A stretch of 64,000 nucleotides of DNA from a plasmid. Below the pieces are notes generated by a model. It searched no databases, was not told where the DNA came from, and saw only the letters and a program-made list of their open reading frames with translations. The first letter of the stretch is position 1; every line of letters starts with the position of its first letter. Positions 24,167-55,433 of the stretch are shown one piece after another. The stretch lies in assembly GCF_054482525.1 (NCBI RefSeq), contig NZ_JBTHVG010000003.1. The stretch is one strand, 5' to 3'. The translations under genes and the position numbers were made by a program.

Positions 24167-24196
24167 AAAGCCAGCATACTTGCTGGCCTTTTTTTT
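24167..24196 (+). terminator. Putative intrinsic terminator after parR
   Basis: gccagcatacttgctggc hairpin followed by a T8 run. Confidence 0.5.
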
Positions 24197-24521: not shown

Positions 24522-24974
24522 ATGCTATCTCGCAACTCACTAATACATGGTTTACGCCGAGACCAGTTAATCGGAGTTCTGACTATTTCAGAGTTTCCGG
24601 TAGTTATGGTAGAAAGCCACTTCATTCAGTCTGAGGTTATGGGAATAAAACCCGTAATTTTTAATATTGATGAGCTTCTTGTTTCTATATCCCCAATTTC
24701 CTCTCTTAAGTTCGATTGGGAGTGGGCCCCAGTTGATACAATACTCATTGAAGTTATCATTCCACCTGTAGAGTCAGACCTTGTAAGTGCAGAAAATGAC
24801 TTCCTCCGTGATTCTGGTATCGGCCATATCCAGTGCGAGCCTGGCGGAGCATCAATACGACGTACAGTTACCTTCGTTGGTGGAATAACCGCTGATAACT
24901 TACTGTATCAGTTGAGGCTTATGTGCGTAAGTGCGTTAAAACTTTTAGGAGAGGAACTGGGGGATGAAGTCTAA
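24522..24974 (+). CDS. Hypothetical protein
   Basis: About 150-aa ORF; start chosen at the internal ATG with an upstream AAGG. Confidence 0.3.
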   Translation: MLSRNSLIHGLRRDQLIGVLTISEFPVVMVESHFIQSEVMGIKPVIFNIDELLVSISPISSLKFDWEWAPVDTILIEVIIPPVESDLVSAENDFLRDSGIGHIQCEPGGASIRRTVTFVGGITADNLLYQLRLMCVSALKLLGEELGDEV

Positions 24975-25389
24975 GATTAGATATGTTTTATCTGGTTTTG
25001 TTGTGATATGTGCATTTGCTGGAGTTTATAAAATCCTAAACAATGTTCCGGTTAAACCTGACCTTTTGGACTTCACTGGAAACACATTTAAAAAGACATC
25101 ACTCTTCCTGCCATGTGATAAAAGCTCGCCTTCTTTAAACATTAAAATTGCTGATAACGAGAAAATCGTGATCAACGGCATCGCTTCAAAAGTAACTTTT
25201 GTTGAAAAGGCTGACCCCGTCAAAAGCCCTGGTTTTTGTGATGATCTTGATCTAAACAATTCTCGCCTTGTACATACGGCATCTTACAGCATGGTGATTT
25301 CTGAAACCAAAACAGGATATACACTCTCAAATTTCAAGCATCTTGCCGATGATGAATCATTAGGTGGTATGTGGTTTTATCAAAAGTGA
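24964..25389 (+). CDS. Hypothetical secreted protein
   Basis: 141 aa with an N-terminal hydrophobic signal-like segment. Confidence 0.3.
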   Translation: MKSKIRYVLSGFVVICAFAGVYKILNNVPVKPDLLDFTGNTFKKTSLFLPCDKSSPSLNIKIADNEKIVINGIASKVTFVEKADPVKSPGFCDDLDLNNSRLVHTASYSMVISETKTGYTLSNFKHLADDESLGGMWFYQK

Positions 25390-40330: not shown

Positions 40331-41203
40331 ATGTCTAAAAATAAAGCTCGCAGTAAAGCCCTTCATCAAACCTTTAGTGAAATTATTCCAGAGATGGATA
40401 AGGCGCTAAACAAACAGCTCTTAGAAGTTCTGATGAAATATACAGAACGTGATAATGAACTGATTGTTATTTTGAATGAGGACGGCCCAAATATCATTGA
40501 ACTTAAGTCTCTTAAGCCTGTGTCGTTGTTGGCCGAAAAGCTTTCTGCTTATTCAAGCTATTATCATGTGGATGTTGTGGAGCTCGTGGTCAAGAAAATT
40601 GATTTCGAAGGAGCTTATAAGCTTCTTAAAGCTTCCCCAGATGTACCACTTTTTAAAAGCTTAACTGAACTGGATAAATATCTTGTTGAGGAGTTTGAAA
40701 AATACGGATTAAATTCATTTCTTGACGTGGATAATCTGGATTACTCACTTGAAAAAGCCAGTGAACTCAAAAATGAGCAGTTAATAAATTGGGTTTCGGA
40801 CATCATTTGCAAACGTGAAAAATTAACTTTACGTAAGCGTTTTGATGTCGCAGTAAAGGCCCACTACGAAAATGTAGAAAAAATGTATGATACCATTCGT
40901 CCGTTAATGAAAAAACTGGGTTTCCCAGAAGATCTCATGACGCACACCTTTAGTGAGTTAAGCGTTTTTGAAACTAAAGGATGGGACCATGCAATAAAAT
41001 CGAAAATTGAGACTCTCGCTAAGCGTGAAACTCAATATTTAGATGATGCGGCTAAAGCAGAGAATCGACGTCTTGTAACAGAGAAGTTGGAGAACTCTTT
41101 AGCGATTGCACCAACTAAACCAACAAGAAATTGGTTACATATTGCCGGAATTGCCTGTTTGGTAGTCTGCACGTTCATGTATGTAACTAATAAATTTATT
41201 TAA
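40331..41203 (+). CDS. Hypothetical protein with C-terminal transmembrane anchor
   Basis: 290 aa, hydrophobic tail (WLHIAGIACLVVCTFMYV). Confidence 0.35.
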   Translation: MSKNKARSKALHQTFSEIIPEMDKALNKQLLEVLMKYTERDNELIVILNEDGPNIIELKSLKPVSLLAEKLSAYSSYYHVDVVELVVKKIDFEGAYKLLKASPDVPLFKSLTELDKYLVEEFEKYGLNSFLDVDNLDYSLEKASELKNEQLINWVSDIICKREKLTLRKRFDVAVKAHYENVEKMYDTIRPLMKKLGFPEDLMTHTFSELSVFETKGWDHAIKSKIETLAKRETQYLDDAAKAENRRLVTEKLENSLAIAPTKPTRNWLHIAGIACLVVCTFMYVTNKFI

Positions 41204-41260
41204 TCCTGTTAAGGGGGAACCCTAACGGGGCTTCTCTTTGAACAAATCGAGGAGCGGAAA

Positions 41261-41638
41261 ATGTCATATCTTGAATATATCAATGAAGTAAAAGTGTCCG
41301 GGATAGTTATCAGTGCTGTGGAGAAAAAAATGACTGACCAGAGTATAGGTTTGTTAATAAAGCTCAAAAATAGGATGAAGACAGAAGTTGATGGTGAAAT
41401 CACTGAGAGAGAATTTTCAGTTCAAATCAAGGTGTCGCCTGAAATGTATTCAACCTGTTTCACTGGTATAAATCAGGGTGATGAGTTGATGGTCTCCGGT
41501 TATATTGTTGTCGATACTATTATGATTGAAGGGAGAGAACATCCTCTTGACTACATGAGAGTGGTAGCAACAAGTAAGTTGGCTCACATACCTAAACCTC
41601 TAAAAGGTTTTGGACAAAGTAGCTTTAATCAGATCTGA
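41261..41638 (+). CDS. Putative OB-fold ssDNA-binding protein (SSB/PriB-like)
   Basis: 125 aa. Beta-strand pattern (NEVKVSGIVISAV ... ELMVSGYIVVDT) resembles PriB/SSB OB-folds by eye. Weak call. Confidence 0.3.
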   Translation: MSYLEYINEVKVSGIVISAVEKKMTDQSIGLLIKLKNRMKTEVDGEITEREFSVQIKVSPEMYSTCFTGINQGDELMVSGYIVVDTIMIEGREHPLDYMRVVATSKLAHIPKPLKGFGQSSFNQI

Positions 41639-41644
41639 CATTAA

Positions 41645-41690
41645 ACCCACCCTAAAGGGGAGAAATCCCTTCATGGGATTTCTCCTTTTG
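41645..41690. repeat. Conserved palindromic intergenic element (GGGAGAAATCCC / GGGATTTCTCC arms)
   Basis: cccaccctaaaggggagaaatcccttcatgggatttctccttttgg. Same arms as the element at 51784-51823. Confidence 0.6.
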
Positions 41691-41698
41691 GAGTCCCC

Positions 41699-42676
41699 AT
41701 GAAACAAAAATTTAGGGCTACTGCAATAAGTAGTAATCAACTTAGTTTTTTTTCTATACTCGATATAGATGAAGATGAAATAACGCAAATAGTTGATTCA
41801 CCCAAAGAGCATTTAAATGATGCTTACACGTCCGGATTAAACTTTAAATCAGAAGAAAGTAACATTTCTGAGATAAATTATGATTCTGAAAGGCGTGAAA
41901 ATCACCTTTATGAAAAATCCAAATTACTTAAAAATCAGATTTTGCATACAATTAATTTTGCAGCAGAAACAGATTATCTATATACGGTTGAAGAATATAA
42001 CCCAGATTTGGGTGGTCTGGTAATAGAATGGACCCCTGAGGATGTGTATGTTGTTTTTCTATCCGCTATGGAAGAGTCTTTGGAAATCATTAAAGAACTA
42101 GTGTTGAGGAGAAAGTTATTCTTCAAAGATGACAATGGTAATATCACAGTGAATCCACTTTTAGAAGCTGAAACACGGTGGTATATGTCAAAATCATTTG
42201 AATACACTTGTTTATGTCATGGACTTGATGCATGTGAATTTAGAGCGGAATTAAAATCATGGCTCTATTATCATTCGCATCGTTCGATTAGTGAAAACAC
42301 GAAATTAGCTGAATGCAGGAATGATGATGAAATCATTTTGCATGATTGCAATGACGATATGGGCTGGGACATCTTCTTTGATCAGGATTATTTAATGTCA
42401 GAAAAAAAACTGGCTGTTAAATGGACTGACAGGGAAATTATGGATGTTTACATAAAAGCTTTTAAATCCACATTAGAGTTGTTTGACGAGCTTGTTTCAT
42501 GTGATCTGTTAACTAAACGAAACGCTTTTGGCAAGTTAGAAATCAATCCAATATTCGAAAATCATTTTGAATGGATCATGTCTGAAGCTTTTGAAATAGT
42601 GGGAAATCATCTTGGTTATAATGTGCCTCAAATCAGGAAACTGATGGCAACTATTTGCCAAATGAATCTCAAATAA
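41699..42676 (+). CDS. Hypothetical protein
   Basis: 325-aa ORF, acidic. Confidence 0.35.
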   Translation: MKQKFRATAISSNQLSFFSILDIDEDEITQIVDSPKEHLNDAYTSGLNFKSEESNISEINYDSERRENHLYEKSKLLKNQILHTINFAAETDYLYTVEEYNPDLGGLVIEWTPEDVYVVFLSAMEESLEIIKELVLRRKLFFKDDNGNITVNPLLEAETRWYMSKSFEYTCLCHGLDACEFRAELKSWLYYHSHRSISENTKLAECRNDDEIILHDCNDDMGWDIFFDQDYLMSEKKLAVKWTDREIMDVYIKAFKSTLELFDELVSCDLLTKRNAFGKLEINPIFENHFEWIMSEAFEIVGNHLGYNVPQIRKLMATICQMNLK

Positions 42677-42733
42677 AATGCCACTGGCAAACATCTGCCA
42701 GAGGGCGGTGTTTGCATTTTACCGGAGTTAAAA

Positions 42734-43792
42734 ATGTCTAATGCCGCTATGAAGTTAAATGAAACATCTTCTGATGCTTATGAAAAATTAGAAGCTCTTC
42801 TTTCCCCGGATGTTATAAAGTTAAAACATTATGTGGATAAAGGTGAGTATCTTTTAGTTCTAGCAAAGGACCTTTTTGGTATTCCAGAAATGGATCCAAA
42901 GATGGCTGTGCCTGTTTTCAAAACTAAAACCTCGTATCGAGCTCCGCTGAACAAAGACTACATACCAAATCCCCGAATACTTGAACAAGTGGTTAAACTG
43001 CTTATCAGTCCGGATATAGATTTAAGTGTGTGTCTTAAAGGTGAGTCCGGTTCTGGCAAGACTGAAATGGTAATGTACATTAGCCACATGATGAATTGGC
43101 CGCTGACAATTAAGCAGATCAACAGCAATATTCGAGTTGATGAGCTTGAAGGTGAGCGCAGTCTTAATGGTGGTAATACAGGTTTTGTACACAGCGATTT
43201 GGTAACGGGATTTCGTAATGGTCACCTCATTCTTCTGGATGAAGTGGACAAAATCGATCCTGATACGGCAGCAAAACTTCACATGCCCATTGAACGTAAG
43301 CCCTGGTCACTCAGTGCTAATGGTGGTGAGGTTATAACTGCTAATGGCTACACGCGATTTATTGGTACTGCAAACACAAACATGAGTGGAGGCGCTCGCC
43401 GGTTCGTTTCTTCTCAACGTCAAGATGCAGCTTTTATAAAGCGGTTCTTGATAGTTGAAATGGAGAAGCCCGACAAAGTTGCTTTAACCAATGTGCTTAC
43501 TAAACGATATAGCTCTTTGCCTTTTCAGGTCATTGAGAAGTTCGTAAGAGTAGCGATTGCAGTAAATGACTCTGGTACAGAAGACAGTGTGATGGATATT
43601 CGTCAATTAGTAGCTTGGGTTGGCACGTCGATGACGTTAAAAACCTTTAGTCTTCTTGACACTTTCAAAATAGCTTTTGCTTCTGCTTTACCTTTACATG
43701 TGGTCGATCTTGTTCTTCAAGCTATAGATCTTTCTCTTGGCGAAGACAAGGATAAATCGCTGGAGTATTTCACAGCAAAAAAGTCGAGTTAG
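42734..43792 (+). CDS. MoxR/CbbQ/CobS-like AAA+ ATPase
   Basis: 352 aa. Walker A GESGSGKT, Walker B LILLDEVDK. Partner vWA gene two genes downstream. Confidence 0.8.
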   Translation: MSNAAMKLNETSSDAYEKLEALLSPDVIKLKHYVDKGEYLLVLAKDLFGIPEMDPKMAVPVFKTKTSYRAPLNKDYIPNPRILEQVVKLLISPDIDLSVCLKGESGSGKTEMVMYISHMMNWPLTIKQINSNIRVDELEGERSLNGGNTGFVHSDLVTGFRNGHLILLDEVDKIDPDTAAKLHMPIERKPWSLSANGGEVITANGYTRFIGTANTNMSGGARRFVSSQRQDAAFIKRFLIVEMEKPDKVALTNVLTKRYSSLPFQVIEKFVRVAIAVNDSGTEDSVMDIRQLVAWVGTSMTLKTFSLLDTFKIAFASALPLHVVDLVLQAIDLSLGEDKDKSLEYFTAKKSS

Positions 43793-44101
43793 ATGGGATT
43801 TGTTATGAAACCTCTGATATTTGTATCTCAGAGTTATCCCATCTTGAATTTAGTGCGTTTTTAAGTACGGATGGTGCTGCTACCATTGCTATAGCAAAAA
43901 ACGGAACTAATTTTACTGGACTTATGCAACTGAATAACGACTATTCTTTATTGTTTTATCATGATGGTAAAATAAATATGGAAGGTCTGATTAAACAAAT
44001 GGAATTAAAAGGTTATATGTATCAGGGAGCAATGGGCAATGATGATGTTGTTGCTGAGTTTCCCGGTATTCTTTTAATTTCACCAGAGAAGCTTTAATAT
44101 C

Positions 44102-44150
44102 AACCCTATCGGGAAATCTTTCCCGTTGGGGAGGGTTTCCCCTTTTTTTT
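44102..44150. repeat. Conserved palindromic intergenic element / putative terminator
   Basis: aaccctatcgggaaatctttcccgttggggagggtttcccctttttttt. Confidence 0.5.
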
Positions 44151-44160
44151 GGAGAAACCC

Positions 44161-45288
44161 ATGACTTTAAATACTTCAATGCTTAACAAAGTATCTGCAA
44201 AACAAATCTCTGAGAATTTTGCAAAATCATATCCAGATTTACTGGAAGGTGCAGTTATAACAAAAATTGAAATAAGTGGCTGTCAAGGATCGCGTCGAAC
44301 CGATAAAATCGATTTGTCTTATGATGGAGATGATATTACGGATCAAAAAAGCGTATCTAAAAGCGAAGTACGCTGGATTGACATAAAAGCCCTTAGCTTC
44401 AAAAGTACGATTACCAGCAGAATATCAACTCTTTGCTCACGCTTGTGCATCCGCTATAGCAATATGTGGATTTTACCAGTATCCAGTATGGAAGAGTTTC
44501 TGGAAGGGGCCCAAGAGATTGAACGAGAGTTTCAGGCAGGTATTCAAAACGTTGTAGACAATTATGAGATGCATATTGAGGCTGAAAAAAATAGAAGCCC
44601 AAGAATGTCTTCTTTGATTGATCAGTTGAAATTAACTAAAGATGATTTCATAAAATCCTTTAGATTTAATATTGCTCACTTTATTCCTTTTACGCCTATT
44701 AGCGTTGAAGGTGATGAAACCCAGGACTACTATCAGGAACAATTGATAACAGATCTGGCAGAAGAAGCAATGAAGGTTTATGAAAAAATTAGCAAAAATA
44801 ACAATTTGCGCTCAAGTACTATTGACCGACTGAAGCAAATGCAAAATAAGATCATTAGCTTCATGTTTATACATAAAGAGGCGGCAGTACTTGCAGAAGC
44901 TATAAAACACATAATGAATAATTTACCTAAAGGTGCCATTTCTGAACCTCGCGACGTTGCGGTGTTACAGCAGTGGTTTTATTTCATGAGTGATGCTTCA
45001 ATGTTAAAGCGTATTATTTCAGGAGAGCAAAAGGTTACTGACTGGTTGGAATCTATTACCAGATCATTTAATCAAAGCTCACAAACAGAACCGAACGCGC
45101 TACAGAACACAGGTATTGAAGCTATTTTAGATTCAACAAATGTGTTCCAGGTTGAACCTGTCGTAGAGAACGATATAAATAACAGCACGTTTTCAAACAC
45201 TGATCCTGTAGCTGAACCTGAGAAATCAGTTTCGCAACAGGAAGACAATGTTGAAAATGGTTTTGATATCGAGCTCAAAGGCTGGTAA
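44161..45288 (+). CDS. Hypothetical protein
   Basis: About 375 aa; ATG at 44161 with a GGAG ribosome-binding site. Lies between the AAA+ and vWA genes. Confidence 0.35.
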   Translation: MTLNTSMLNKVSAKQISENFAKSYPDLLEGAVITKIEISGCQGSRRTDKIDLSYDGDDITDQKSVSKSEVRWIDIKALSFKSTITSRISTLCSRLCIRYSNMWILPVSSMEEFLEGAQEIEREFQAGIQNVVDNYEMHIEAEKNRSPRMSSLIDQLKLTKDDFIKSFRFNIAHFIPFTPISVEGDETQDYYQEQLITDLAEEAMKVYEKISKNNNLRSSTIDRLKQMQNKIISFMFIHKEAAVLAEAIKHIMNNLPKGAISEPRDVAVLQQWFYFMSDASMLKRIISGEQKVTDWLESITRSFNQSSQTEPNALQNTGIEAILDSTNVFQVEPVVENDINNSTFSNTDPVAEPEKSVSQQEDNVENGFDIELKGW

Positions 45289-45306
45289 CTGTTTGCTTTA
45301 TTAAAA

Positions 45307-45350
45307 ACCCCAGATGGGTACTTCACCATCTGGGTGAGTACCCCTTTTTT
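45307..45350. repeat. Conserved palindromic intergenic element / putative terminator
   Basis: cccagatgggtacttcaccatctgggtgagtacccctttttt. Confidence 0.5.
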
Positions 45351-45365
45351 ATAAAGAGGTATTCT

Positions 45366-47378
45366 ATGAAATTAGATCTTAAATCATCACCGCGCCATAT
45401 TAAGCGTTTACAGAATATAGCAAAAGTCATTAGCGGCTTAGGCGATGTAAGAGTTGTAATAGACGACAATACCAAAGGACCGTATTTTGATCCTGTAAAT
45501 AAAGTTTGTGTTTTACCAAACGGCGATTATAGCGATGATGACTTTGTCAGTCTGATTGAAGGTTTTACCTGTCATGAAGCTGGTCATGGTCGCTATACCG
45601 ACAGCGAGGTTTACAGTGACGCCTTTAATAGTGTTCTCAAGTCATCTGAAGGGTTTACACGCTTCGATGACGGAATGAATGCAGAGTTTGAGAGCCTCGC
45701 TGAGAAACGTAAAGCTTATAGCAGGGCAAAACGTCTTACCGGGCTTATAAATCTGTTCGATGATGTACAGATGGAAGAGAAGGTTGGTAACGATTATCCG
45801 GATGCAAAGCGGCGGCTTGCAGCCACTTACGCACTGATGGTTAAAGCCGGAAGGATGACTCCTGATATATCTTCTCGTCCGGAAAATCCTGTCCTATTTA
45901 TTGAGTGGTATCTGCTTAACTCATTGCGAGTAAAAGTCCTTCAGCAGGCAGGTCACAAAGAAACACTCGATCCGTTTTTTGACTATGCCCAAAAGATACT
46001 TTCTCCAGTAATTTCTGATGTTGAGGAAATTTTTCATGATGCTCTTGGTTGTGAAAATACTCAGGGCTGTGAATCCCTTGCTCGTAAGACCCTGGCTCTT
46101 TTAGAGAGACTGCGGGATGAGGCAAGGGAACAACAGCAGCAGACAGAGCAGGAGGAGCAGGAGGCATATGATGAATCCGAGACCGATACCGATACCGATA
46201 CCGAATCAGAAGATAAATCGCTTGAGTCGACTGATAGTCGTGAGGATGATTCTGAGGACGATAGTGAAGGTCAGGCAGATACTTCCGATAACTCTGATCT
46301 TGCTCAAGAGGGATGTTCTGAGCCTTCAGAACTTGCTGAAGATAACGAGGGAAATAATGAACCCACCGGTGGCAATCCCACAGGTGATAACATTATTGAA
46401 GACGATACTGATGCGATTAACCCTTCCGAGAGTGAATCAGATGAAGCCAGTTCGACTAACGTTGAAGATGAAAGTAACTTTTCATCGGCTCAATGGGAGA
46501 TACTGGCAGATTTGTTGGATGCCTTTCTTGGCAGTGATGAGGATAGCGAAGATTATCACGATGCTTTGGCTAAAGAGATTGAAGGTATTGCATCAAAAGT
46601 ATCCGATGACGTGAAAGCCGAATTCGGTGCTTCTGAATGGGATATCCCTGATCTCCTTATCGATTTGAATGTTTACAATGAGGCTTTGTCTCTGAGTCAT
46701 TCAATCGGTAGCGACTTGTCTGTTTTACAGCAGGTTAAAATGCGTGGCCGAAACAAAACTCATGAGCGTGGAATTACCTTCGATGGAAATCGATTAATTC
46801 TGTCACCAATGGGAGTTCGTGATGTCTTCAGAGCTCAAAGCGAATCTAAAAATAGAGGGCATGTTGGCCTCGTATTAGTTCGTGATATTTCAGCGTCAAT
46901 GGCTAATGATGAAAGATATATTCATGCCATTAAGTCAGATCTTGCTTTATCGATGGCCGCTGAAAGTTTGTCAAAAATGCATGTCTCCAATATAGTCTTT
47001 CCCTTCAAGGAAAGTGAATTTGAGATTATCAAAACGTTTGATCAAAGCGTTGAGGAATCTCTATCGAAATTCACTCTTGGATGTAAGGGTTATTATACCC
47101 CTACGGGATCGGCTTTAATGGCAGCTGTTGATCTGTTACTTGACAGCCAATTCGATAGGAAAATAATTTTTCTTATAACTGATGGTTATCCGAATAAATC
47201 GGAATTTACTATCGGCGAAGTTATGGAAAAGGCTAAGTGTAATGGAATAGAAATCGTTGGTGTTGGTATTAAGACTGATGAAATAATTGGTTTTGAAACG
47301 GACACTTTCGTAACAGTTGATGATACTTCTTTATTGTCTATTGAAGTCAGTAAGCTAGTTCATCAAATACTTTCTTAA
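45366..47378 (+). CDS. von Willebrand factor A (vWA/MIDAS) protein, CobT-like, with a highly acidic low-complexity linker
   Basis: 670 aa. MIDAS DxSxS (VRDISASM). Central acidic tract (EQEEQEAYDESETDTDTDTESEDKSLESTDSREDDSEDDSE). Paired with an upstream MoxR-type ATPase. Confidence 0.7.
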   Translation: MKLDLKSSPRHIKRLQNIAKVISGLGDVRVVIDDNTKGPYFDPVNKVCVLPNGDYSDDDFVSLIEGFTCHEAGHGRYTDSEVYSDAFNSVLKSSEGFTRFDDGMNAEFESLAEKRKAYSRAKRLTGLINLFDDVQMEEKVGNDYPDAKRRLAATYALMVKAGRMTPDISSRPENPVLFIEWYLLNSLRVKVLQQAGHKETLDPFFDYAQKILSPVISDVEEIFHDALGCENTQGCESLARKTLALLERLRDEAREQQQQTEQEEQEAYDESETDTDTDTESEDKSLESTDSREDDSEDDSEGQADTSDNSDLAQEGCSEPSELAEDNEGNNEPTGGNPTGDNIIEDDTDAINPSESESDEASSTNVEDESNFSSAQWEILADLLDAFLGSDEDSEDYHDALAKEIEGIASKVSDDVKAEFGASEWDIPDLLIDLNVYNEALSLSHSIGSDLSVLQQVKMRGRNKTHERGITFDGNRLILSPMGVRDVFRAQSESKNRGHVGLVLVRDISASMANDERYIHAIKSDLALSMAAESLSKMHVSNIVFPFKESEFEIIKTFDQSVEESLSKFTLGCKGYYTPTGSALMAAVDLLLDSQFDRKIIFLITDGYPNKSEFTIGEVMEKAKCNGIEIVGVGIKTDEIIGFETDTFVTVDDTSLLSIEVSKLVHQILS

Positions 47379-47386
47379 TAAACTCT

Positions 47387-47423
47387 ACCCAATCGGGGCA
47401 AAAGGCCCCGGTGGGTCTTTTTG
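47387..47423. repeat. Palindromic intergenic element / putative terminator
   Basis: cccaatcggggcaaaaggccccggtgggtctttttgc. Confidence 0.5.
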
Positions 47424-47449
47424 CTCCATGAAGGAATAAGGAGCAAAAT

Positions 47450-47671
47450 ATGACTCAGATAAAAACTTACCGTGTAGAACATGAAAAAGTCGGTGCGATG
47501 CATAAAGTCCGTATTTTCGGACGTGTTGGTGAAGTTATAAGCAATGATAGCCCTCAGGAAAGAATCTTCCGCGAAGTCACTATAGCGGAGGGTAATAGCC
47601 AGCAGGCTGCGTTACTTGTAGATAACTACATACAGTGTCTTGAGAATAATGGCTTCACGACTGAAGCATAA
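47450..47671 (+). CDS. Hypothetical small protein
   Basis: 73-aa ORF flanked by two palindromic elements. AGGAG-like ribosome-binding site (aaggagcaaaatatg). Confidence 0.35.
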   Translation: MTQIKTYRVEHEKVGAMHKVRIFGRVGEVISNDSPQERIFREVTIAEGNSQQAALLVDNYIQCLENNGFTTEA

Positions 47672-47676
47672 ATGTT

Positions 47677-47700
47677 GAGGGCCCCCGGGCCCTCTTTCTT
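47677..47700. terminator. Putative intrinsic terminator (GAGGGCCCCCGGGCCCTC palindrome)
   Basis: Perfect GC palindrome followed by a T-rich run. Confidence 0.55.
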
Positions 47701-47784
47701 AAATTCTGCGTTGTGGGTTTCTCCCTGTCTTCTGCACCGCAGAAGGCATTGAGAAACTCACAATGCCAGATAAGAGAGATCATC

Positions 47785-49017
47785 ATGACTTATGCATCCC
47801 CGGCTCTTCGTCGTAATCCACAGGAAGTATCTGAACACTTTATTAAACTCGTTCATGCTCGAATTGCTGAAGTGTCTGGCTGGAAGTATATATTCGAAAG
47901 AATACCTGCTTTCAAAGACGCTTGTGCAAAAGCCCCGAGCCAGGTTCCTTGCCCGTTTACTGGCGCAGGGAAATCGAAGTTTCGTTTCCGACAAAAAGAC
48001 CTTTATACCGGATGTGCGATCCATAATGACTTTCCGGTAAATGAGTTTTGCGACGGAATTGATGTTCTGGCGAAATATTATGAATTAAGTAAAACGCAGA
48101 CTTGCAAAAAGATTCTCTCAGATTTTTTCGGGATGGATCTGCATGCTCCGTTAACTGACGCCGACATTGAAAATGAACGACGCTATAAATCAGCAGTTCG
48201 TGCCACAGAAACTCTTGACCGAGAGGAAGTGGCAAAGCGAATGCGAAAACTTGATGTGATGTATCACTATACCGGTGAAATCAAGCCTAATACTCCTGTT
48301 GCTTTGTACCTCCGTAATCGTGGGATCTCCCGCTTACTGAGTCACTTACCAAAGGATTTAGGCTTTAATAACCGGATCTACTATTGGGATAAAGATAAGC
48401 AGAAATCGATTATCTATCCGGGAATGATTGCGATCTATCGTGACACCCGAGGTCGGCCTCTGACTATTCATAGAACATACGTAGACAAAAATGGTGATAA
48501 GGCACCTGTAGAAAATCCAAAGCTGATGATGAAGCCTCCTGCCGATATGACAGGTGGCTCAATTCAGTTGTTTGACCCTCACTATGATTCAGGTAGTTCG
48601 ACCTGGACACTGGGAGTGGCTGAAGGGATCGAGAACGCGCTTTCTGTTGTAGAAGCGACTTCAACACCATGCTGGGCAGCCAGCTCCGCATGGTGCCTTG
48701 AAAACGTTACTGTTCCTGATTTTTTACTGCCTCCGCCGGATGTAAAATCTATAAACTTTTATATCTGGGCGGATAAGGATATTGCTAACTCACAAGGCAC
48801 TCGTGCCGGTATTGAAGCTGCTCAGCGACTTCAAAGCCGCATGGTTGAGTTTTTGGCTAAACGATATCCCGCATCAAAGCTGACAATTGAAGTCTTCGAA
48901 CCAGCACAAGATATTCCTGATGGGAAAAAGGGTATCGACTGGAACGATGTTCTCCAGTTAACAGGGCAGGATGGATTCCCGATTCACTGGGCTCCTGAAT
49001 GTCTTAATCAGCTGTAA
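47785..49017 (+). CDS. Primase-like protein (degenerate primase zinc-ribbon-like segment plus Toprim-like domain)
   Basis: PCPFTGAGKSKFRF resembles the CPxCGGxDRF primase zinc-ribbon motif. Toprim-like acidic motifs (LGVAEGIENA; IWADKDIANSQG). ATG at 47785 with an AGAGAG ribosome-binding site. Confidence 0.55.
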   Translation: MTYASPALRRNPQEVSEHFIKLVHARIAEVSGWKYIFERIPAFKDACAKAPSQVPCPFTGAGKSKFRFRQKDLYTGCAIHNDFPVNEFCDGIDVLAKYYELSKTQTCKKILSDFFGMDLHAPLTDADIENERRYKSAVRATETLDREEVAKRMRKLDVMYHYTGEIKPNTPVALYLRNRGISRLLSHLPKDLGFNNRIYYWDKDKQKSIIYPGMIAIYRDTRGRPLTIHRTYVDKNGDKAPVENPKLMMKPPADMTGGSIQLFDPHYDSGSSTWTLGVAEGIENALSVVEATSTPCWAASSAWCLENVTVPDFLLPPPDVKSINFYIWADKDIANSQGTRAGIEAAQRLQSRMVEFLAKRYPASKLTIEVFEPAQDIPDGKKGIDWNDVLQLTGQDGFPIHWAPECLNQL

Positions 49018-49028
49018 CAACGATAACT

Positions 49029-49052
49029 CCCCCGCTTTTTGCGGGGGGGGTT
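49029..49052. terminator. Putative intrinsic terminator after the primase-like gene
   Basis: cccccgctttttgcggggggg hairpin. Confidence 0.55.
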
Positions 49053-49287
49053 ATCTTATCAATATTATATTTTAAAATTGTATTGATAAGATAACCGCTT
49101 TCCTTCGTGATAATTACCTGCCTTTAAGGTCTTTTCACGGCTGAGATGCTTGCTCAGTTAAATAAATGTGCGGTACTACTGGCTATGGTCGGTTGTATGA
49201 CATGGTTATTCCATAAACTATTAAAACCCATAACGGGAGTATTACCGTTATGGTGATGCTCGTCGTTTTACATCGGAGAGCATTTTA

Positions 49288-49809
49288 ATGAATTTTCAAA
49301 TTAACGAAGTTTTTAATAAATTTGCTGCTGTTATAAAATCGCGCATCGTCAATGAACCATCGTCATGCTATTTGCTGCATGATAATGAGATAGATATAAC
49401 GATTTTGAAACATAGCATATTAGAAAATGACAGAAACCTGTTGTACGTAGTTCGTCCTTCAGGAACGTGTTTGTTGCGTTGTGACAAATATTTCTATCCG
49501 AAATATTATCTTCGTTGCCGTGGAGATTATAAGTCATTCATATATGTCCATCTTGATCTACATAGTGGTGAAGCTAAAGAAATCACATGGGAGCAAGCAG
49601 ACGATATGCTGTCTAGTCCAGGAAAACCCCCATTAAAAGGGAATCTTGGACGATTTGAGTATATAAAAGTTGTGGTTGAGGACCTTCGTATTCGAGGTTA
49701 CGCTGATTATCTTCCTGCGTATAATCTTGATGACCTTCGCCGTTTTGCCTTACAGGACGACCGCCCATCCCTTGTCAGATACATTGACAATGTCATGGCA
49801 ACGGTCTGA
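49288..49809 (+). CDS. Hypothetical protein
   Basis: 173-aa ORF. Confidence 0.3.
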   Translation: MNFQINEVFNKFAAVIKSRIVNEPSSCYLLHDNEIDITILKHSILENDRNLLYVVRPSGTCLLRCDKYFYPKYYLRCRGDYKSFIYVHLDLHSGEAKEITWEQADDMLSSPGKPPLKGNLGRFEYIKVVVEDLRIRGYADYLPAYNLDDLRRFALQDDRPSLVRYIDNVMATV

Positions 49810-49887
49810 TTGATTGCTAATTGATTTACATATTTTCCCTGATGGCCAACCTGCATCAGGGAGGCCTCAATAACGAATGGAGGCTGT

Positions 49888-50766
49888 ATGAAGTTAGCTA
49901 CGGACCTGGTAAAAGCTATTTTGATTAGAAATGGCGTTGAACCAGTAAATATAAGCGAATCATCTAAGTTATCTTTGAAACAACCACTGACAGAACTTAA
50001 ATTCAGTTTATATTTGCGAACTGAGCATTTATCTCACTTCCTACCCGGTTATGTTTATTCTATAAAAGAATGTCCACTGTCATATGACATCGGGATCGAA
50101 ATTCAGAAAATCTTCGAAAGTTTACATTTGTTAAACGAAGAATTTGAATCCCTCGGTTTTGTTTCTGTATGGATAGAAATGCATCAAAGCATTTTTGAAC
50201 AAAGTCGGTTTAAGAAAAGTAACTTTACTTTTCGGGAGGAAGAGGTCGAGCTTGCTAAAGGGCTTGTTTGTTCTCACAATTCACAAATAAGTAATGCGGC
50301 TTATTTCTGGCTTCAGCACTTTGAGGAGTTTATGATTTATGTTCGTAATAAGCTTATCGACCTCTTTCGAGAGGCCTATGACCTGATCCTTGGAATGCAG
50401 CAAGTATTTTTCATTCGGGAAAAGGAAGAGCTGTTGAAAACTATAAGTTATGGCGATGAGCTGTATGAGGTGAAATTCATGGCGGCTGAGCTTTACTCTA
50501 TCGAACAGAACTTAAAGTGTTCTGAATCGATAAGTACAAAATCTCAAGCTTCGGCATATATTAACCGCATCCGTGAGTTTGTGCGTTCGGGGTGGAGGCA
50601 GGGCTATATAGTCTGCCATCATAAGCGAAGTAATCAAATTTCATCATTGTCATTACCGATGTACTTGAAAGATACGTCAGGCCGAAGTGCTCGAAAGCGA
50701 GTAAAACGTCTTATATCTTCTACAGTTTGTGGTAGAAATAAAGATTTAGGTCTTACAGATTTTTAA
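49888..50766 (+). CDS. Hypothetical protein, paralogue 1 of a five-gene tandem family
   Basis: 292 aa. N-terminal pattern (MKLATDLVKAILIRNGVEP...) shared with the next four ORFs. Confidence 0.4.
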   Translation: MKLATDLVKAILIRNGVEPVNISESSKLSLKQPLTELKFSLYLRTEHLSHFLPGYVYSIKECPLSYDIGIEIQKIFESLHLLNEEFESLGFVSVWIEMHQSIFEQSRFKKSNFTFREEEVELAKGLVCSHNSQISNAAYFWLQHFEEFMIYVRNKLIDLFREAYDLILGMQQVFFIREKEELLKTISYGDELYEVKFMAAELYSIEQNLKCSESISTKSQASAYINRIREFVRSGWRQGYIVCHHKRSNQISSLSLPMYLKDTSGRSARKRVKRLISSTVCGRNKDLGLTDF

Positions 50767-50776
50767 TTAAATTATA

Positions 50777-50820
50777 CCCATGTGGGGATCACACCCCATA
50801 TGGGAGTGATCCCTTTTTTT
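50777..50820. repeat. Conserved palindromic intergenic element / putative terminator
   Basis: cccatgtggggatcacaccccatatgggagtgatcccttttttt. Confidence 0.6.
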
Positions 50821-50836
50821 ATTGAGAGAGGATCAC

Positions 50837-51772
50837 ATGAAAATTATCGAAAAAATCATTAATGCCTTTTTGGTTGTTCAACATAAAAAAATACAGGTTA
50901 AAAACATTACATTTTTAGACAATGGGCAGGGCATGTTCTCTGGTATGTCTTTTGATGCTGATGTTTCACTGGAGTTTATGTATGAATCAGCAAAAGCATA
51001 TAGTTCTTGTTTCTGTGATATTCCCTTTCCAGGTTTTGAAGATGCAAATCTGGAGGAAATTACGAAATTTCAATTAGATGCTTTGAAGCAAAGAAAGAAT
51101 CATTCTTTCTTTGTTAACCATTTGAGGTTTCCTATAGTTTTAAGGGAAGGGTGCAAAATCGAAAGAGGAGAAGTCTATTCAATTTCGAATTGCACTTATA
51201 ATAAAGAAAGATTGCAGTATCTTTTTTCTCAGGATATTTACGGTAAGTTGTATAATTCCTTAGAGAAAGAATTAAGCTCGTTTTTCTCATTTATCAATGT
51301 TGAGGTGCACGAGTTGTTAAAAGATGCTGTATGCTTTGCATTAAAAATCCTGAATAAGATATCTTTGGATACACCTGAAAGACTTATTAAAGCTTTTAAT
51401 TATCGTGACTGGTATTGTAGTTACGATGTTGAGCTTTTTAGGAAAGGCTTACCTGGTCATATTCTGGAAGAGCTCATTGCTCCAGATATCTTACTTTCAG
51501 ACCTTAACGGTTGTAGAAAAATACTTAGAAATGCAAAACGATTTCTAAATGGACATACACAAACCAATTGTGTTTATATTAAATATGAATGGTGGTTGGG
51601 GCCTGTTGATACCTCACACTCAGCTAAGTTGATGTCTGACAAAGAAATTAATAACCGAAGTGACTTGAAGAATTTTTCAAAGGTCTTTTTCAAAGAGTGT
51701 TTAAGTTCTGGTAAGTCGGAATATGAAAACCATCTTAGTGAAAAAGAACATGCGCTTCGCTATAATTATTAA
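50837..51772 (+). CDS. Hypothetical protein, paralogue 2 of the tandem family
   Basis: 311 aa; ATG at 50837 after GAGAGAGGA; N-terminus MKIIEKIINAFLVVQ... Confidence 0.4.
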   Translation: MKIIEKIINAFLVVQHKKIQVKNITFLDNGQGMFSGMSFDADVSLEFMYESAKAYSSCFCDIPFPGFEDANLEEITKFQLDALKQRKNHSFFVNHLRFPIVLREGCKIERGEVYSISNCTYNKERLQYLFSQDIYGKLYNSLEKELSSFFSFINVEVHELLKDAVCFALKILNKISLDTPERLIKAFNYRDWYCSYDVELFRKGLPGHILEELIAPDILLSDLNGCRKILRNAKRFLNGHTQTNCVYIKYEWWLGPVDTSHSAKLMSDKEINNRSDLKNFSKVFFKECLSSGKSEYENHLSEKEHALRYNY

Positions 51773-51783
51773 TTAAAATTATT

Positions 51784-51823
51784 TTCTCCCATAGGGATTT
51801 CTCCCTATGGGAGAAATCCCTCT
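51784..51823. repeat. Conserved palindromic intergenic element (GGGATTTCTCCC / GGGAGAAATCCC arms)
   Basis: ttctcccatagggatttctccctatgggagaaatccctc. Perfect 12-bp arms with a 3-nt loop; same arms as the element at 41645-41690. Confidence 0.65.
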
Positions 51824-51840
51824 ATTAAGAGGGTATTGAA

Positions 51841-52761
51841 ATGAATGCTATACAAAAGTTAGTTGAATCTATTCTTGTTAAAATGGGTTTTGTTGGCGCT
51901 GTAGTGGAAAATATATATTTGGATTCAAAACCATTTCGGCATATTCGATTTGTGGCTGATATTCCAGTAATATCTTTTCTACCTCATTTGGTGAAATATC
52001 TTAAGGGTGCAGACCATCTTTACAGTGGTAACGATGATTTGCATCCTCTTTTCATTTATTTTTCCGAAGCGGCTACATTAAAAGCAGGTCCTGTAAATCT
52101 CGCGAACTTTCGTTTTGAAGTTTCTATAGCTTCAACTCATTTACGACTGGTCTCAGAGCAGCCTGATTTGCTTTTCAAAGGATTTAACCGGGATAATCTA
52201 GAATACGTTTATTACCGCTCAGATTTGGCCTCTAAGGATCTTATACTAGGCCTTGTTGAACACGGTTCTCCTTTCATAAAACATCTACATGGACTTATAC
52301 AAAAGCGAATTTTAAACGAGTTCTCTCTGATTTTTTCTGTTCTTGAAAAGATTTTAGAAAGCGCGAAGCCACAAATTCTTGCTTGCTTCCATAGTGTTGA
52401 TTATGAAATGAACGTAAAAATAATAGCCGAAGCTATACCTGAAACTGTATCTAATCAGATAGTCACATCTGATTATATAGTTAATTCTATATCAGATGCG
52501 GACAAGTTTATAAATCATGTTCGTCGCTATTTAGCAGGCAGGGTAATGAAGAGGCGGATATACGCTGAATTAGATGTTTGTGAAGAAACATCAAGTATTT
52601 CACTAGTGAACTTAGGATGCTTTACGTCTCCTCTGCTCGTTACGGAATATCAAATGTTTAAGCCACACTCTTCAGGGTTATATCGAAAAGCTATAAACAA
52701 CTCCTTAAAACAGTTCAAACCAGAAATGCATGTACCTTCTGAAGAACTCTTTTATAATTAA
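51841..52761 (+). CDS. Hypothetical protein, paralogue 3 of the tandem family
   Basis: 306 aa; N-terminus MNAIQKLVESILVKMGF... Confidence 0.4.
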   Translation: MNAIQKLVESILVKMGFVGAVVENIYLDSKPFRHIRFVADIPVISFLPHLVKYLKGADHLYSGNDDLHPLFIYFSEAATLKAGPVNLANFRFEVSIASTHLRLVSEQPDLLFKGFNRDNLEYVYYRSDLASKDLILGLVEHGSPFIKHLHGLIQKRILNEFSLIFSVLEKILESAKPQILACFHSVDYEMNVKIIAEAIPETVSNQIVTSDYIVNSISDADKFINHVRRYLAGRVMKRRIYAELDVCEETSSISLVNLGCFTSPLLVTEYQMFKPHSSGLYRKAINNSLKQFKPEMHVPSEELFYN

Positions 52762-52766
52762 TCTAA

Positions 52767-52810
52767 CCCATCCGGGAACCTGCTTCCCGGTGGGAAGCAC
52801 TTCCTTTTTA
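52767..52810. repeat. Conserved palindromic intergenic element
   Basis: cccatccgggaacctgcttcccggtgggaagcacttccttttta. Preceded by ATCTAACCCA, as is the element at 53879. Confidence 0.55.
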
Positions 52811-52827
52811 GTCATGAGGTAGTGTAA

Positions 52828-53766
52828 ATGTTTAAAGAATCTGACCACGTGGAATTTGTTAGTGCCTTTCTTTATCAAAATTTAGGCCTTAATGTTTCCG
52901 CTGACGATATAACCGTTCAATTATCTGATACTTCGTTCGACAAAGTAACCTTTGATTACGATGTAGATATCGATAATTTAAATTGTATGTTGGATCTCTA
53001 CATATCTGAGCTAATAAAGCACAACGCATCTTACTCCGATTCTATTCTTTTGAAACAAAAAATAATTTATTTTCTTGGAGTATTTAAGAATTTCGGATTT
53101 TTTACGTTTGATATTCGCGGATATAGTAATACTTTAAGCCCAGTTAAAGTTATTGATATTGTTTCAATGATTATTAATGACTGTGAAGAGTTATCTAAAG
53201 CTAATTCTTCTACTGATGCTATAAGAAATCTTTATCTCGATAAAATGAAGGTGGATGGGAAAGTGTTAGTTGCGAAATTTGCACTTAAACAGTTTTTTCA
53301 TTCCGACTTTGGTGACTTTATCTCATTTGTCGAGAAAAGAATTACAGATTGTCTTAATGAAACTTTAAGGATTATCAAAGCTGTTGAACATGGCTTTGTA
53401 CGTGTAGGGCAGCATAAGATTAATCGCCGTATTAATGATGACTTAAAGTTATGCATTGATTTCAATACTGATGATTATCCGGCAAATATGCCAGATATAT
53501 ATATTAAGTTTAACGATACATTTGATGGGAACGGGGCGTTATATTGTGACAATGATGCCCTCATATCCCTCTATACCGATGTTGCTTCAATTATCAATGT
53601 GCCGGTGATGATGGAAGTAAGATTGATCAATAAAAGAGGGCGTGTTGTCTGTGATTCTTCGCATTCAACTTACGTATCTCTCGAAAGTAATGACCGATAC
53701 AGAGTAACTGATCGCACATTACTAATAACTGAAGCTTTTGACGATTTTCGTAACGCGTCTCAATGA
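52828..53766 (+). CDS. Hypothetical protein, paralogue 4 of the tandem family
   Basis: 312 aa. Clearly paralogous to the next ORF (VDGKVLVAKFALKQFFHSDF versus VDGQVMIARFALQQFWDTHF; C-terminal DRTLLITEAFDDFRN versus DRNDLVSEVFDNLRN). Confidence 0.45.
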   Translation: MFKESDHVEFVSAFLYQNLGLNVSADDITVQLSDTSFDKVTFDYDVDIDNLNCMLDLYISELIKHNASYSDSILLKQKIIYFLGVFKNFGFFTFDIRGYSNTLSPVKVIDIVSMIINDCEELSKANSSTDAIRNLYLDKMKVDGKVLVAKFALKQFFHSDFGDFISFVEKRITDCLNETLRIIKAVEHGFVRVGQHKINRRINDDLKLCIDFNTDDYPANMPDIYIKFNDTFDGNGALYCDNDALISLYTDVASIINVPVMMEVRLINKRGRVVCDSSHSTYVSLESNDRYRVTDRTLLITEAFDDFRNASQ

Positions 53767-53878
53767 TCCTTTTGCTTCAGTCCAAAAAAGTAACTTTGGT
53801 TGGCTGAAGACACTTGTCTATGACAATGTAAAATCTGTCGCTGGCATCTTCTTTTAGCTTAACCAAATTTTTATCTAA

Positions 53879-53919
53879 CCCAGTGGGGAAGTCGCTTCCC
53901 TTCTGGGGCACTTCCTCTC
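53879..53919. repeat. Conserved palindromic intergenic element
   Basis: cccagtggggaagtcgcttcccttctggggcacttcctctc. Downstream ribosome-binding context GAGGTAGTGTA is shared with the 52828 gene. Confidence 0.55.
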
Positions 53920-53931
53920 AAATTCGAGGTA

Positions 53932-54894
53932 GTGTATATGACACATTCATCTGATGATAAAAACTATGTCCGAGCAGTTCTGAGTTATCTTGGCATAGAT
54001 TTTGATGAGGCGGATATAGTATTAAGTGTTTGCCATTGTCAAAGTGACGAGCTTTCTTTTACCTGTAATATCAAAGCTATTGAACTCAAGAATGTTGTTG
54101 ATTTATATGTCGATAGTATCTCTGAGAATGAAATAGAAGCTTTAAACAGAGAATCTTTAAAATCGCGACTCTGTTACTTTCTTGAGGTGTTTGACGCAGT
54201 CTCTGGTCAGTACCTTGAAATTTCAGGAAAACACTTTGCAACTAGTCGTTTTGAATATGATGATGTTTGTAGTGAAGTTCTTAGCATGTCTAATGATGTT
54301 TCTCAGTCGAAAGGTTATGACCGGGATGAATATAACAGACTGATGCAGGTTGATGGTCAGGTTATGATTGCCCGTTTTGCTTTGCAACAGTTCTGGGATA
54401 CTCATTTTATTGGACTAATAACATTTGTATCTGAGTCTATAACATCGAGCCTCTATAAAGCTTATGAAACTTTTAGTGATATTAGTTTGGCTTGCTATAA
54501 ACTGAGTGAATATTCTTATTCACGCTCTATCAACAGTGAATTGACCCTTAATATTTCACTTAAAGAAAATGACTTCTGTGAGGACCTATCTGATTGCTAT
54601 ATGGAAGATGAGGCTTTACCTTCTGGTAGGGTAATTTCTCGACGCAACAATGACTCCATAATAAGTATTTATGAGAGCTATGCTGCGGCTTCTTATATTC
54701 CGATGATTGCATCTTTGGAAGTCGTTGATGAATACGGCGAAGTGGTTACTGACCTCTGCCATACCGTTTATGTTTCAGAGTTAACCGGTGGGCGGATTAA
54801 AATCCACGACCGTAATGACTTAGTATCTGAAGTTTTCGATAACCTAAGAAATTTAAATCTTGCAGTTGGAGATTCAGTTTCACAAGCTGCTTGA
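53932..54894 (+). CDS. Hypothetical protein, paralogue 5 of the tandem family
   Basis: 320 aa; paralogous to the 52828 ORF. Confidence 0.45.
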   Translation: MYMTHSSDDKNYVRAVLSYLGIDFDEADIVLSVCHCQSDELSFTCNIKAIELKNVVDLYVDSISENEIEALNRESLKSRLCYFLEVFDAVSGQYLEISGKHFATSRFEYDDVCSEVLSMSNDVSQSKGYDRDEYNRLMQVDGQVMIARFALQQFWDTHFIGLITFVSESITSSLYKAYETFSDISLACYKLSEYSYSRSINSELTLNISLKENDFCEDLSDCYMEDEALPSGRVISRRNNDSIISIYESYAAASYIPMIASLEVVDEYGEVVTDLCHTVYVSELTGGRIKIHDRNDLVSEVFDNLRNLNLAVGDSVSQAA

Positions 54895-55157
54895 TTCTTT
54901 CCCTGATTTTGATTTTTTCTCACATACTCTTATGGCACGGTTTCCGTGCCTTTTTTTTGCCTCGCTTACAAGCGTCTACTCCTCTTCTACCTATCCCACC
55001 TTACATCACCACTTAAAATCTATCTTTCTAATTCCATTATCCTTTTCGTAGCCTCTAATGCTCTGGTATGAACATACTCTTTAAACTCAAAAAAGTGCTA
55101 TTAACGAAAAAAAATCCCTAAAGAGATTTGTATACTGTTCTCAACCAAGGAGAGCTC

Positions 55158-55433
55158 ATGAATGAACTAAAATCCAAAAACGAGAACAGTACCAAAAGCA
55201 ACTTTCCCCCGGTTGATAATCAGTTTTGCTTTTACCATGTTGATTTCAGCATAGAACGACTACTTTCTACGGCCGAGGATCTCCAGCTTGAGTACATCTT
55301 CCAGAAACCTGGAAGTGAAGTAAGAAAGGATTTGGTTGAGCGATTCGAACGTGGAGAGCGCTTTGTTACAGCTTCACACTGTGACAATTTCTGTGAAATC
55401 CTTGGTTGTCAAGGCCATCAGGAAAATGCATAA
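55158..55433 (+). CDS. Hypothetical small protein
   Basis: About 91 aa from the ATG at 55158, with an AAGGAG ribosome-binding site. Confidence 0.3.
   Translation: MNELKSKNENSTKSNFPPVDNQFCFYHVDFSIERLLSTAEDLQLEYIFQKPGSEVRKDLVERFERGERFVTASHCDNFCEILGCQGHQENA

Follow-up and report, generated by a model that had tools for sequence, protein, structure and literature searches.

Ancient paralogues at the end, and a repeated Shine-Dalgarno-sequestering RNA module along the length, of an HtdA-controlled operon of IncHI plasmids

This study investigated a tandem array of five genes in a 64,000-nucleotide (nt) stretch of plasmid DNA (NCBI RefSeq assembly GCF_054482525.1, contig NZ_JBTHVG010000003.1), hereafter called the window, which is the backbone of an IncHI2 (R478-type) plasmid. 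The five open reading frames (ORFs), designated O1 to O5, occupy positions 49888 to 54894 of the + strand, downstream of the Tra2 transfer genes and trhI, and RefSeq labels all five "hypothetical protein". The analysis revealed that they are paralogues of ancient origin that belong to a single undescribed family, whose members are soluble and approximately 300 amino acids (aa) long. This common family, its predicted fold without a solved relative, its placement at the end of an operon, and a repeated RNA module sequestering the Shine-Dalgarno (SD) sequence are the findings reported here. We favor, with moderate confidence, a joint reading in which these ancient paralogues close an HtdA-controlled operon, are preceded by SD-locking modules, and serve as non-enzymatic subunits or binding modules tied to conjugation.

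Kinship, predicted fold, and conservation of the five proteins

All five ORFs were present on the + strand, as listed in a preliminary description of this DNA made from the sequence alone. O1 (49888..50766) encodes a 292-aa protein of near-neutral pI; O2 (50837..51772) and O3 (51841..52761) encode proteins of 311 and 306 aa, respectively; O4 (52828..53766) encodes 312 aa with a net charge of -14; and O5 (53938..54894) encodes 318 aa with a net charge of -30 and a pI of 4.3. The frames of O2 and O5 open earlier, at TTG 50822 and GTG 53932, and both RefSeq and the position of the SD hairpin favor ATG 50837 and ATG 53938. A GAGG or AGGA motif sits 5' of every start, within the second hairpin of the spacer, which bears out the separate ribosome-binding site ascribed to each gene.

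In BLASTP comparisons within the window, O4 and O5 were the sole linked pair (E = 3e-37, 27% identity over the full length), which upheld their proposed paralogy, and O1 to O3 had no match. An all-against-all BLAST comparison placed every array member in one of three classes, namely class A (O1-type), class B (O2/O3-type), and class C (O4/O5-type). O2 and O3 were joined by BLAST intermediates (L013_g1 matched O2 at 5e-38 and O3 at 7e-7) and by hhalign (91.6% probability, E = 8e-7), the latter with three-sequence profiles that showed the same tendency as the class profiles. We then compared class profiles comprising members from six plasmid lineages, using 33 pairs with flanking genes of the same lineages as controls. 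Class A matched class B with 96.7% probability (E = 4e-10, 237 columns) and class C with 89.6% probability (E = 2e-6, 220 columns), and classes B and C matched with 41% probability (E = 3e-4, 235 columns); all three alignments were collinear. The control pairs gave E values of at least 0.006, most of them at least 0.09, and aligned in short stretches only. The assignment of O1 draws on its ORF, the class-A profile, an AlphaFold2 model, and cross-matches in the AlphaFold Database (AFDB); that of O2 on its ORF and on hhalign and BLAST intermediates to O3; that of O3 on its ORF, hhalign, BLAST, and the class profiles; that of O4 on BLASTP to O5 and an AlphaFold2 model; and that of O5 on its ORF, BLASTP to O4, and charge. 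The membership of O1 to O3, on which the preliminary description had been tentative, is thus supported by controlled class-profile comparisons and by the predicted fold described below. The other genes of similar length in the same operon (40331-41203 and 41699-42676, approximately 300 aa), a 125-aa gene (41261-41638), and the 173-aa gene upstream of the array are not members (all E values at least 0.05).

Searches of NCBIfam, PHROGs, PADLOC, and Pfam returned zero matches for O1 to O5, and the earlier remark that the family was not recognized stands. The outcome named in advance as contrary, five unrelated proteins or a match of all to a well-characterized housekeeping family, was not observed; the profiles support kinship, and Pfam matches none of them. 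Word-indexed searches with O4, O2, and O1 retrieved near relatives alone (18, 10, and 3 clusters, respectively), and sequence-profile searches of the PDB gave no match. An exhaustive HMMER search of 1.84 billion proteins with an O4+O5 profile yielded 40 matches and did not retrieve O1 to O3; the matches were O4/O5-type except for one weak, repeat-summed match to an LPXTG protein. This protein (P0055, a 2078-aa Gram-positive surface protein) has nine repeats that align with positions 194-293 of the class C profile with a summed E of 7e-9, and Pfam weakly assigns the repeats as Antigen_C or Cna-B-like. The match may hint weakly at the nature of the C-terminal beta domain, or the motif may be shared by chance.

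AlphaFold2 models of O4 (predicted local distance difference test score 86.7, predicted template modelling [TM] score 0.80) and O1 (83.8 and 0.77, respectively) provided structural evidence for kinship. The O4 model runs helix, strand, strand, helix, helix, strand, helix, helix, followed by a 45-residue helix, a beta-rich C-terminal domain, and a final helix, and the element order of the O1 model, the other member modelled, is identical. The predicted fold therefore comprises an N-terminal alpha/beta domain, a central helix of approximately 45 residues, and a C-terminal beta-sheet domain. A Foldseek search of AFDB50 with the O4 model retrieved its own family, the R27 orthologue of O1 (A0A379Y271, E = 1e-4), and approximately 300-aa proteins of other Enterobacterales with 9-14% identity. 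The O1 model matched the class C entries A0A381KN38 (E = 1e-6, TM score 0.60) and A0A2L0W1W3, which were top matches of O4, and A0AAN1A8B6 (306 aa, E = 4e-11, TM score 0.65), which is probably class B. The matches between classes were reciprocal (TM scores 0.5-0.65, probability 1.00). The structure and profile check proposed for the family thus yielded cross-class matches and one topology in both models, and the fold, although confidently predicted, is without a solved relative.

Outside the array, AFDB proteins of approximately 260-310 aa from Enterobacterales and Pasteurellaceae resemble the array proteins over most of their length (Foldseek probability 1.00, TM scores 0.4-0.65), but with a sequence identity of only 8-14%. 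Some are named NgrC, among them A0A4R8FL14, A0A759MCE3, and A0AAN2CGC7 (10-12% identity). The name carries no described function, and no literature explaining it was found. Another name, RefSeq "TTC39/IML2 family protein", is attached to a 170-aa C-terminal O5 remnant on an IncHI2-derived plasmid (NC_021819.1, 4-516; L005); we rejected it as an identity for the family, as the labelled protein is truncated and the name looks spurious and automatic.

A joint alignment of 25 members contained 47 conserved columns over the whole length, of which 46 are hydrophobic and one is D/E. The lack of a catalytic constellation among these columns argues for a non-enzymatic character. The maximum 19-residue hydropathy of O1 to O5 was 0.7-1.5, indicating no transmembrane segments. 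The net charge of the O5 class was -21 to -31 in all six lineages, that of O4 varied between +6 and -14 among lineages, and O1 to O3 were near neutral.

The preliminary description had viewed the array as a variable cassette under diversifying selection, and the comparison across plasmids did not favor this view. A 6-kb block containing the array (49200-55200) matched 1,126 records of the plasmid collection and was at least 99% identical in 1,113 of them. Escherichia, Salmonella, and Enterobacter account for most of the records, and the majority carry a conjugative typing; NZ_CP024143.1, a representative, is typed as IncHI2A, MOBH, and MPF_F. The family was found only in IncHI-type (MOBH, MPF_F) contexts. 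In IncHI1A (L003) and IncHI1B (L004) plasmids, the five genes recur in unchanged order, and across IncHI2, IncHI1A, and IncHI1B the orthologues are 1:1 with almost no change in length. Identity between IncHI2 and IncHI1 is 46-64% for O1 to O5 and 56-81% for most flanking genes. The gene-wide ratio of nonsynonymous to synonymous substitution rates (dN/dS) between IncHI1A and IncHI1B is 0.14-0.24 for O1 to O5, within the range of the flanking backbone (0.06-0.22, with a 73-codon ORF as an outlier at 0.83). The five-gene set is maintained by purifying selection, and this selection together with the fixed gene set fits poorly with a fast-evolving decoy cassette.

Gene number varies between deep lineages only. 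At the same syntenic position, the array comprises two genes in L006/L007, four in L010/L013 and in L011/L012, and five in IncHI1 and IncHI2, with the compositions A-C, A-B-C-C, B-B-C-C, and A-B-B-C-C. The contigs of the most diverged members keep the order AAA_5, DUF3150, VWA, a 72-aa ORF, Toprim_3/DUF7146, a gene of approximately 180 aa, the array, small genes, Ter, integrase, and Hha. Rare insertion sequences (ISs) were found in IncHI2 arrays: IS1 lies in the spacer between O4 and O5, IS903B cuts O3 short, and O4 is interrupted by IS21 in one plasmid and by IS3 in another. Of the four plasmids concerned (L017-L020; CP100014.1, NZ_CP043034.1, NZ_CP098184.1, and NZ_OU015329.1), three are still typed as conjugative. 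In the prototype IncHI1 plasmid R27 (L016, NC_002305.1, 11238-13530), IS2 splits O5 into a 183-aa N-terminal and a C-terminal fragment. The insertions in O3, O4, and the R27 O5 show that single members are dispensable for plasmid survival.

Operon context and expression in R27

The upstream part of the operon that contains the array (40331..49809, + strand) was delimited by annotation, a scan for the RNA module described below, and R27 expression data. It comprises, in order, three hypothetical genes, an AAA_5 ATPase gene, a 57-aa ORF, a DUF3150 gene, a VWA gene, a 73-aa ORF, the gene of a Toprim_3/DUF7146 protein, and a 173-aa ORF. Beyond the array, several small ORFs precede genes encoding a Tus-like terminus-binding protein, an integrase, and Hha.

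We examined the expression of the corresponding R27 genes in the microarray data of Gibert et al. 2020 (PMC7366339). R27 numbering runs opposite to the window, such that R0003 is trhI and is followed downstream by R0002, R0001, R0210, and R0209; the array corresponds to R0198-R0203, with a mapping good to approximately one ORF. In that article, R0204 to R0002 are described as a "cluster of 9 genes" of unknown function induced 5-23-fold at 25 °C compared with 37 °C. These are the genes downstream of trhI in the same operon as the array, and the array ORFs share their HtdA-dependent derepression. At 25 °C, signals in the wild type and the htdA mutant, respectively, were 49 and 5679 for R0203 (115-fold), 27 and 2740 for R0202 (102-fold), 32 and 3378 for R0201 (107-fold), 129 and 6669 for R0200 (52-fold), 33 and 3245 for R0199 (97-fold), and 104 and 3955 for R0198 (38-fold). 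At 37 °C, the six ORFs gave wild-type signals of 9-61, approximately 10 for four of them, with no derepression. All six behave alike, and the conclusion of co-derepression is thus independent of the one-ORF uncertainty in the mapping. The upstream genes R0204-R0210 and R0001-R0002 reached approximately 10,000-25,000 in the htdA mutant at 25 °C, and the wild-type signal of the distal ORFs lies under the detection limit, which is why the published cluster stops at R0204. The parts of PMC7366339 covered here do not mention the paralogy, the protein family, or the RNA modules, and PMC6764697 does not mention the array ORFs.

Past the IS2 in O5, the signal in the htdA mutant falls to 116 (R0194) from 3955 (R0198), a collapse that is a polar effect on the distal fragment. 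The ORFs placed after the O5 terminator, R0192 and lower-numbered ones, are constitutive, with 635-2562 units at both temperatures for R0192 to R0185 in the published data (PMC7366339). A canonical intrinsic terminator (GGCACGGTTTCCGTGCC followed by T8; 54934..54958, + strand) lies after O5, and an equivalent follows the last array gene in six of six lineages. The small ORFs behind O5 (54895-55127 and genes to approximately 58460) apparently form a separate unit. Promoter-like sites showed no excess (21 found, 29.9 expected). The terminator after the last array gene, the lack of a promoter excess, the IS2 polarity, and the co-derepression fit a single transcript that begins upstream of R0002 and extends through O5. 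The array is accordingly the promoter-distal third of an operon of approximately 15 kb and 15 genes that starts after trhI and ends at the terminator after O5. In R27, this operon is within the HtdA/TrhR-TrhY conjugation regulon; it is silent at 37 °C, and at 25 °C its expression is weak in the wild type and derepressed in the htdA mutant.

The two-hairpin RNA module

Conserved hairpins had been noted between the genes, and folding confirmed that they are real; each spacer contains two adjacent hairpins and not a single palindrome, and they are not specific to the array. On the + strand, hairpin 1 (HP1) and hairpin 2 (HP2) lie at 49836-49862 and 49863-49885 before O1 (49836..49885), where HP2 pairs the SD motif GAGG, and at 50777-50804 and 50806-50836 before O2 (50777..50836), where folding and compensatory changes support them. 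Folding and the module scan placed the remaining pairs at 51783-51816 and 51818-51833 before O3 (51783..51833), 52767-52794 and 52797-52825 before O4 (52767..52825), and 53879-53907 and 53908-53935 before O5 (53879..53935). The array hairpins have folding energies of -23 to -36 kcal/mol per 65 nt.

The module was characterized at 24 junctions from six lineages; its arms differ in length and cannot be aligned in register, and each element was therefore folded individually. Both hairpins folded at all 24 junctions, 0-4 nt apart, with a mean z score of -4.7 against shuffled sequences. Three to four of the four SD nucleotides were paired in the 3' arm of HP2 at every junction, and the 3' end of HP2 lay 0-7 nt before the ATG, except for one junction where it reached 2 nt into the ATG. 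HP1 is GC-rich and starts 2-28 nt after the upstream stop codon in most array junctions and 39-116 nt after it in longer spacers. The sense strand was more stable than the antisense strand at 20 of the 24 junctions, with 51 G·U among 490 pairs, and this G·U-based stability points to a role in mRNA. The arm sequences of both hairpins differ between junctions and lineages with pairing retained; in HP2 before O2, for instance, GTGATCC/GGATCAC of IncHI2 is replaced by GTAATCC/GGATTAC of IncHI1. Rfam contained no family matching the hairpins.

The module stands before most cistrons from the second gene of the operon up to O5. A scan of the window revealed 10 modules, all on the + strand and each before a real gene (starts at 41261, 44161, 45366, 47450, 49288, 49888, 50837, 51841, 52828, and 53938; 41.2-53.9 kb). 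The single further match in the 64 kb is on the - strand with no ORF behind it and is spurious. Five other lineages showed the same pattern, and the 40 kb of upstream Tra2 and partition genes hold one module, at the second gene of the operon. The junction of the toprim gene (start 47785) has no standard module; a hairpin of -36.6 kcal/mol (47706-47765) lies just upstream of this RefSeq start, inside a longer ORF from GTG 47713.

A local hairpin that pairs the SD sequence and stops immediately short of the start codon is a known arrangement. SD-sequestering hairpins serve translational coupling or control in phage MS2 (coat-replicase) and in many operons, and the ROSE and fourU elements are RNA thermometers. 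The module of the array operon differs from these in that it recurs before at least 10 consecutive cistrons, always with an upstream HP1. It also differs from the thermometers, as its HP2 was too stable in silico to melt between 25 and 42 °C. The median probability of an unpaired SD was 0.008 at 25 °C, 0.016 at 37 °C, and 0.026 at 42 °C, compared with approximately 0.55 for Tra2 control genes in silico, and a simple RNA thermometer is unlikely. Opening of the hairpin by a ribosome at the upstream stop codon, as in translational coupling, may apply to a minority of junctions: the stop is usually too far from HP1 (2-116 nt), and a simulated terminating ribosome, with 16 nt masked from the stop codon, freed the SD at only 4-5 of 24 junctions.

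HP1, for its part, resembles the intercistronic stem-loops that stabilize upstream mRNA segments; it is stable, GC-rich, and located shortly after most stop codons, and the R27 signal falls along the operon. REP and BIME elements are repeated palindromes, conserved in sequence and present in both orientations, whereas HP1 is not a conserved repeat, is confined to one operon and one orientation, and is always followed by HP2.

The palindromes had also been described as terminator-like and as insulating each gene, with independent or attenuated expression. A terminator was identified only after O5; any T-run of the internal spacers is located within the loop of HP2, behind its 5' arm, and does not directly follow the hairpin, and the distal ORFs are co-derepressed. 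Independent expression is not supported, given this co-derepression with the upstream genes and the IS2 polarity. Attenuation is supported by the sequestered SD and by the step-down of the R27 signal at or just before the start of the array. The 270-nt spacer that separates the toprim and 173-aa genes (49018..49287, + strand) may coincide with the step-down from R0204 to R0203, here or one junction on. Its minimum free energy is -99.8 kcal/mol (z = -7.8), and over six lineages it has 53 consensus pairs, 11 with compensatory changes, together with long invariant blocks and no Rfam match. Candidate roles for it are those of a partial terminator, a small RNA, or a priming site.

Interpretation and biological meaning

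In the reading that we favor, the HP1/HP2 module would most likely keep the translation of each cistron low or conditional, with HP1 probably stabilizing the upstream RNA or acting as a weak terminator. The proteins would be non-enzymatic subunits or binding modules, a best guess of moderate confidence drawn from the conserved core. The paralogues would probably cooperate, the smallest combination being A + C, and their task would be linked to conjugation, for example the processing of DNA or the establishment of the plasmid, together with the ATPase, the VWA protein, and the primase-like protein of the operon. Several findings weigh against this interpretation. Neither 25-42 °C nor a terminating ribosome opened the SD at most junctions in silico. 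The homology of classes B and C, taken alone, is weak (41%) and depends on transitivity through class A and on the common fold. A hetero-oligomer is putative, suggested by the paralogy, the constancy of the gene set, the difference in charge, and the shared expression, and an obligate complex of five subunits is disfavored by lineages in which class A or class B is missing. Single members are dispensable, and R27, which was used for the conjugation and microarray work of PMC7366339, has a broken O5. Finally, the microarray data come from an IncHI1 plasmid and the window from an IncHI2 plasmid, with R-numbers mapped to approximately one ORF.

Among the alternatives, a cassette in which each paralogue neutralizes a different host defense in the recipient or donor, with duplication widening the range, is the most probable but still unlikely. 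ArdA, KlcA/ArdB, and the Ocr-type DNA mimics are plasmid-borne, non-enzymatic, and transfer-linked, as is the array; the plasmid is conjugative with a broad host range, the array is co-expressed with the transfer regulon, the O5 class is strongly acidic in all lineages, a trait of DNA mimics, the absence of conserved catalytic residues suits binders, and the gene set varies between deep lineages, with single members being lost. This anti-defense role is weakened by purifying selection at the level of the backbone, by the absence of turnover among more than 1,100 IncHI2 plasmids, by the 1:1 orthology and conserved lengths between IncHI1 and IncHI2, and by the near-neutral O1 to O3; moreover, the array proteins have no profile membership shared with ArdA, Ocr, or KlcA in Pfam, NCBIfam, PHROG, or PADLOC. 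Location in the leading region next to the origin of transfer (oriT), a feature of anti-restriction genes, is not supported: the relaxosome and Tra1 genes of R27 are R0121-R0126 (PMC7366339), and the array is R0198-R0203. The Nature 2024 paper on leading regions does not cover IncH and MOBH plasmids. Entry exclusion, which had also been suggested, disagrees with the lack of transmembrane segments by hydropathy (signal peptides were not part of this test), and R27 entry exclusion is assigned to the Z operon. It is quite unlikely that the paralogues are adaptors or chaperones of the conjugative type IV secretion system that bind different plasmid proteins, the primase-like protein being one candidate, and hand them over to the coupling protein for passage into the recipient. 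Other plasmids export primases (Sog, TraC) into the recipient, a Toprim protein is encoded adjacent to the array, the genes are co-regulated with the tra genes, and the proteins are soluble and in some cases acidic, with conservation confined to the hydrophobic core; yet the fold matches are weak and partial, approximately 300 aa is twice the size of a typical secretion chaperone, and members are dispensable in R27.

The hairpins might act as DNA, either as REP-like selfish repeats or as single-stranded sites at which the adjacent primase would prime or recognize DNA during transfer, and would then play no part in translation. Many strong palindromes do lie near the primase-like gene, including the extremely structured toprim-proximal spacer without an Rfam match, but the position of the module is locked to the SD and start codon at all 24 junctions, the modules occur on the coding strand only, and G·U pairs favor the sense strand at 20 of them. 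Arms that vary freely while pairing is kept exclude both a mobile repeat and a conserved sequence for protein binding, and we regard a DNA-level role as very unlikely. The simplest view, that five unrelated hypothetical genes of similar size are separated by ordinary terminators, is extremely improbable. It would accord with a BLASTP result limited to O4-O5 and with an O4/O5 hidden Markov model that misses O1 to O3 among 1.84 billion proteins, but it is contradicted by the controlled profile comparisons, the common fold, and the conserved core columns, as well as by internal hairpins that no T-run directly follows and by the continued co-derepression of the distal R27 ORFs covering the array.

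A more far-reaching version of the favored interpretation is speculative, and we consider it rather unlikely as a whole. In it, the operon distal to trhI would encode a machine tied to conjugation, in which classes A, B, and C form a hetero-oligomeric scaffold with a new fold that works with the AAA_5, VWA, and primase-like proteins in plasmid establishment or protection. The HP1/HP2 modules would then constitute an operon-wide translational gate opened by a specific RNA-binding protein, helicase, or RNase. If true, such a gate would mean that the transfer of IncHI plasmids is also controlled after transcription.

IncHI1 and IncHI2 plasmids rank among the main vehicles of multidrug, mcr, and heavy-metal resistance in Salmonella, E. 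coli, and Enterobacter, and the block analyzed here is present in at least 1,126 sequenced plasmids. Few units of R27 are repressed by HtdA as strongly as this operon, with its approximately 100-fold derepression. Should the proteins or the RNA gate prove important for transfer or establishment, they would offer IncHI-specific targets and reveal a further layer of conjugation control.

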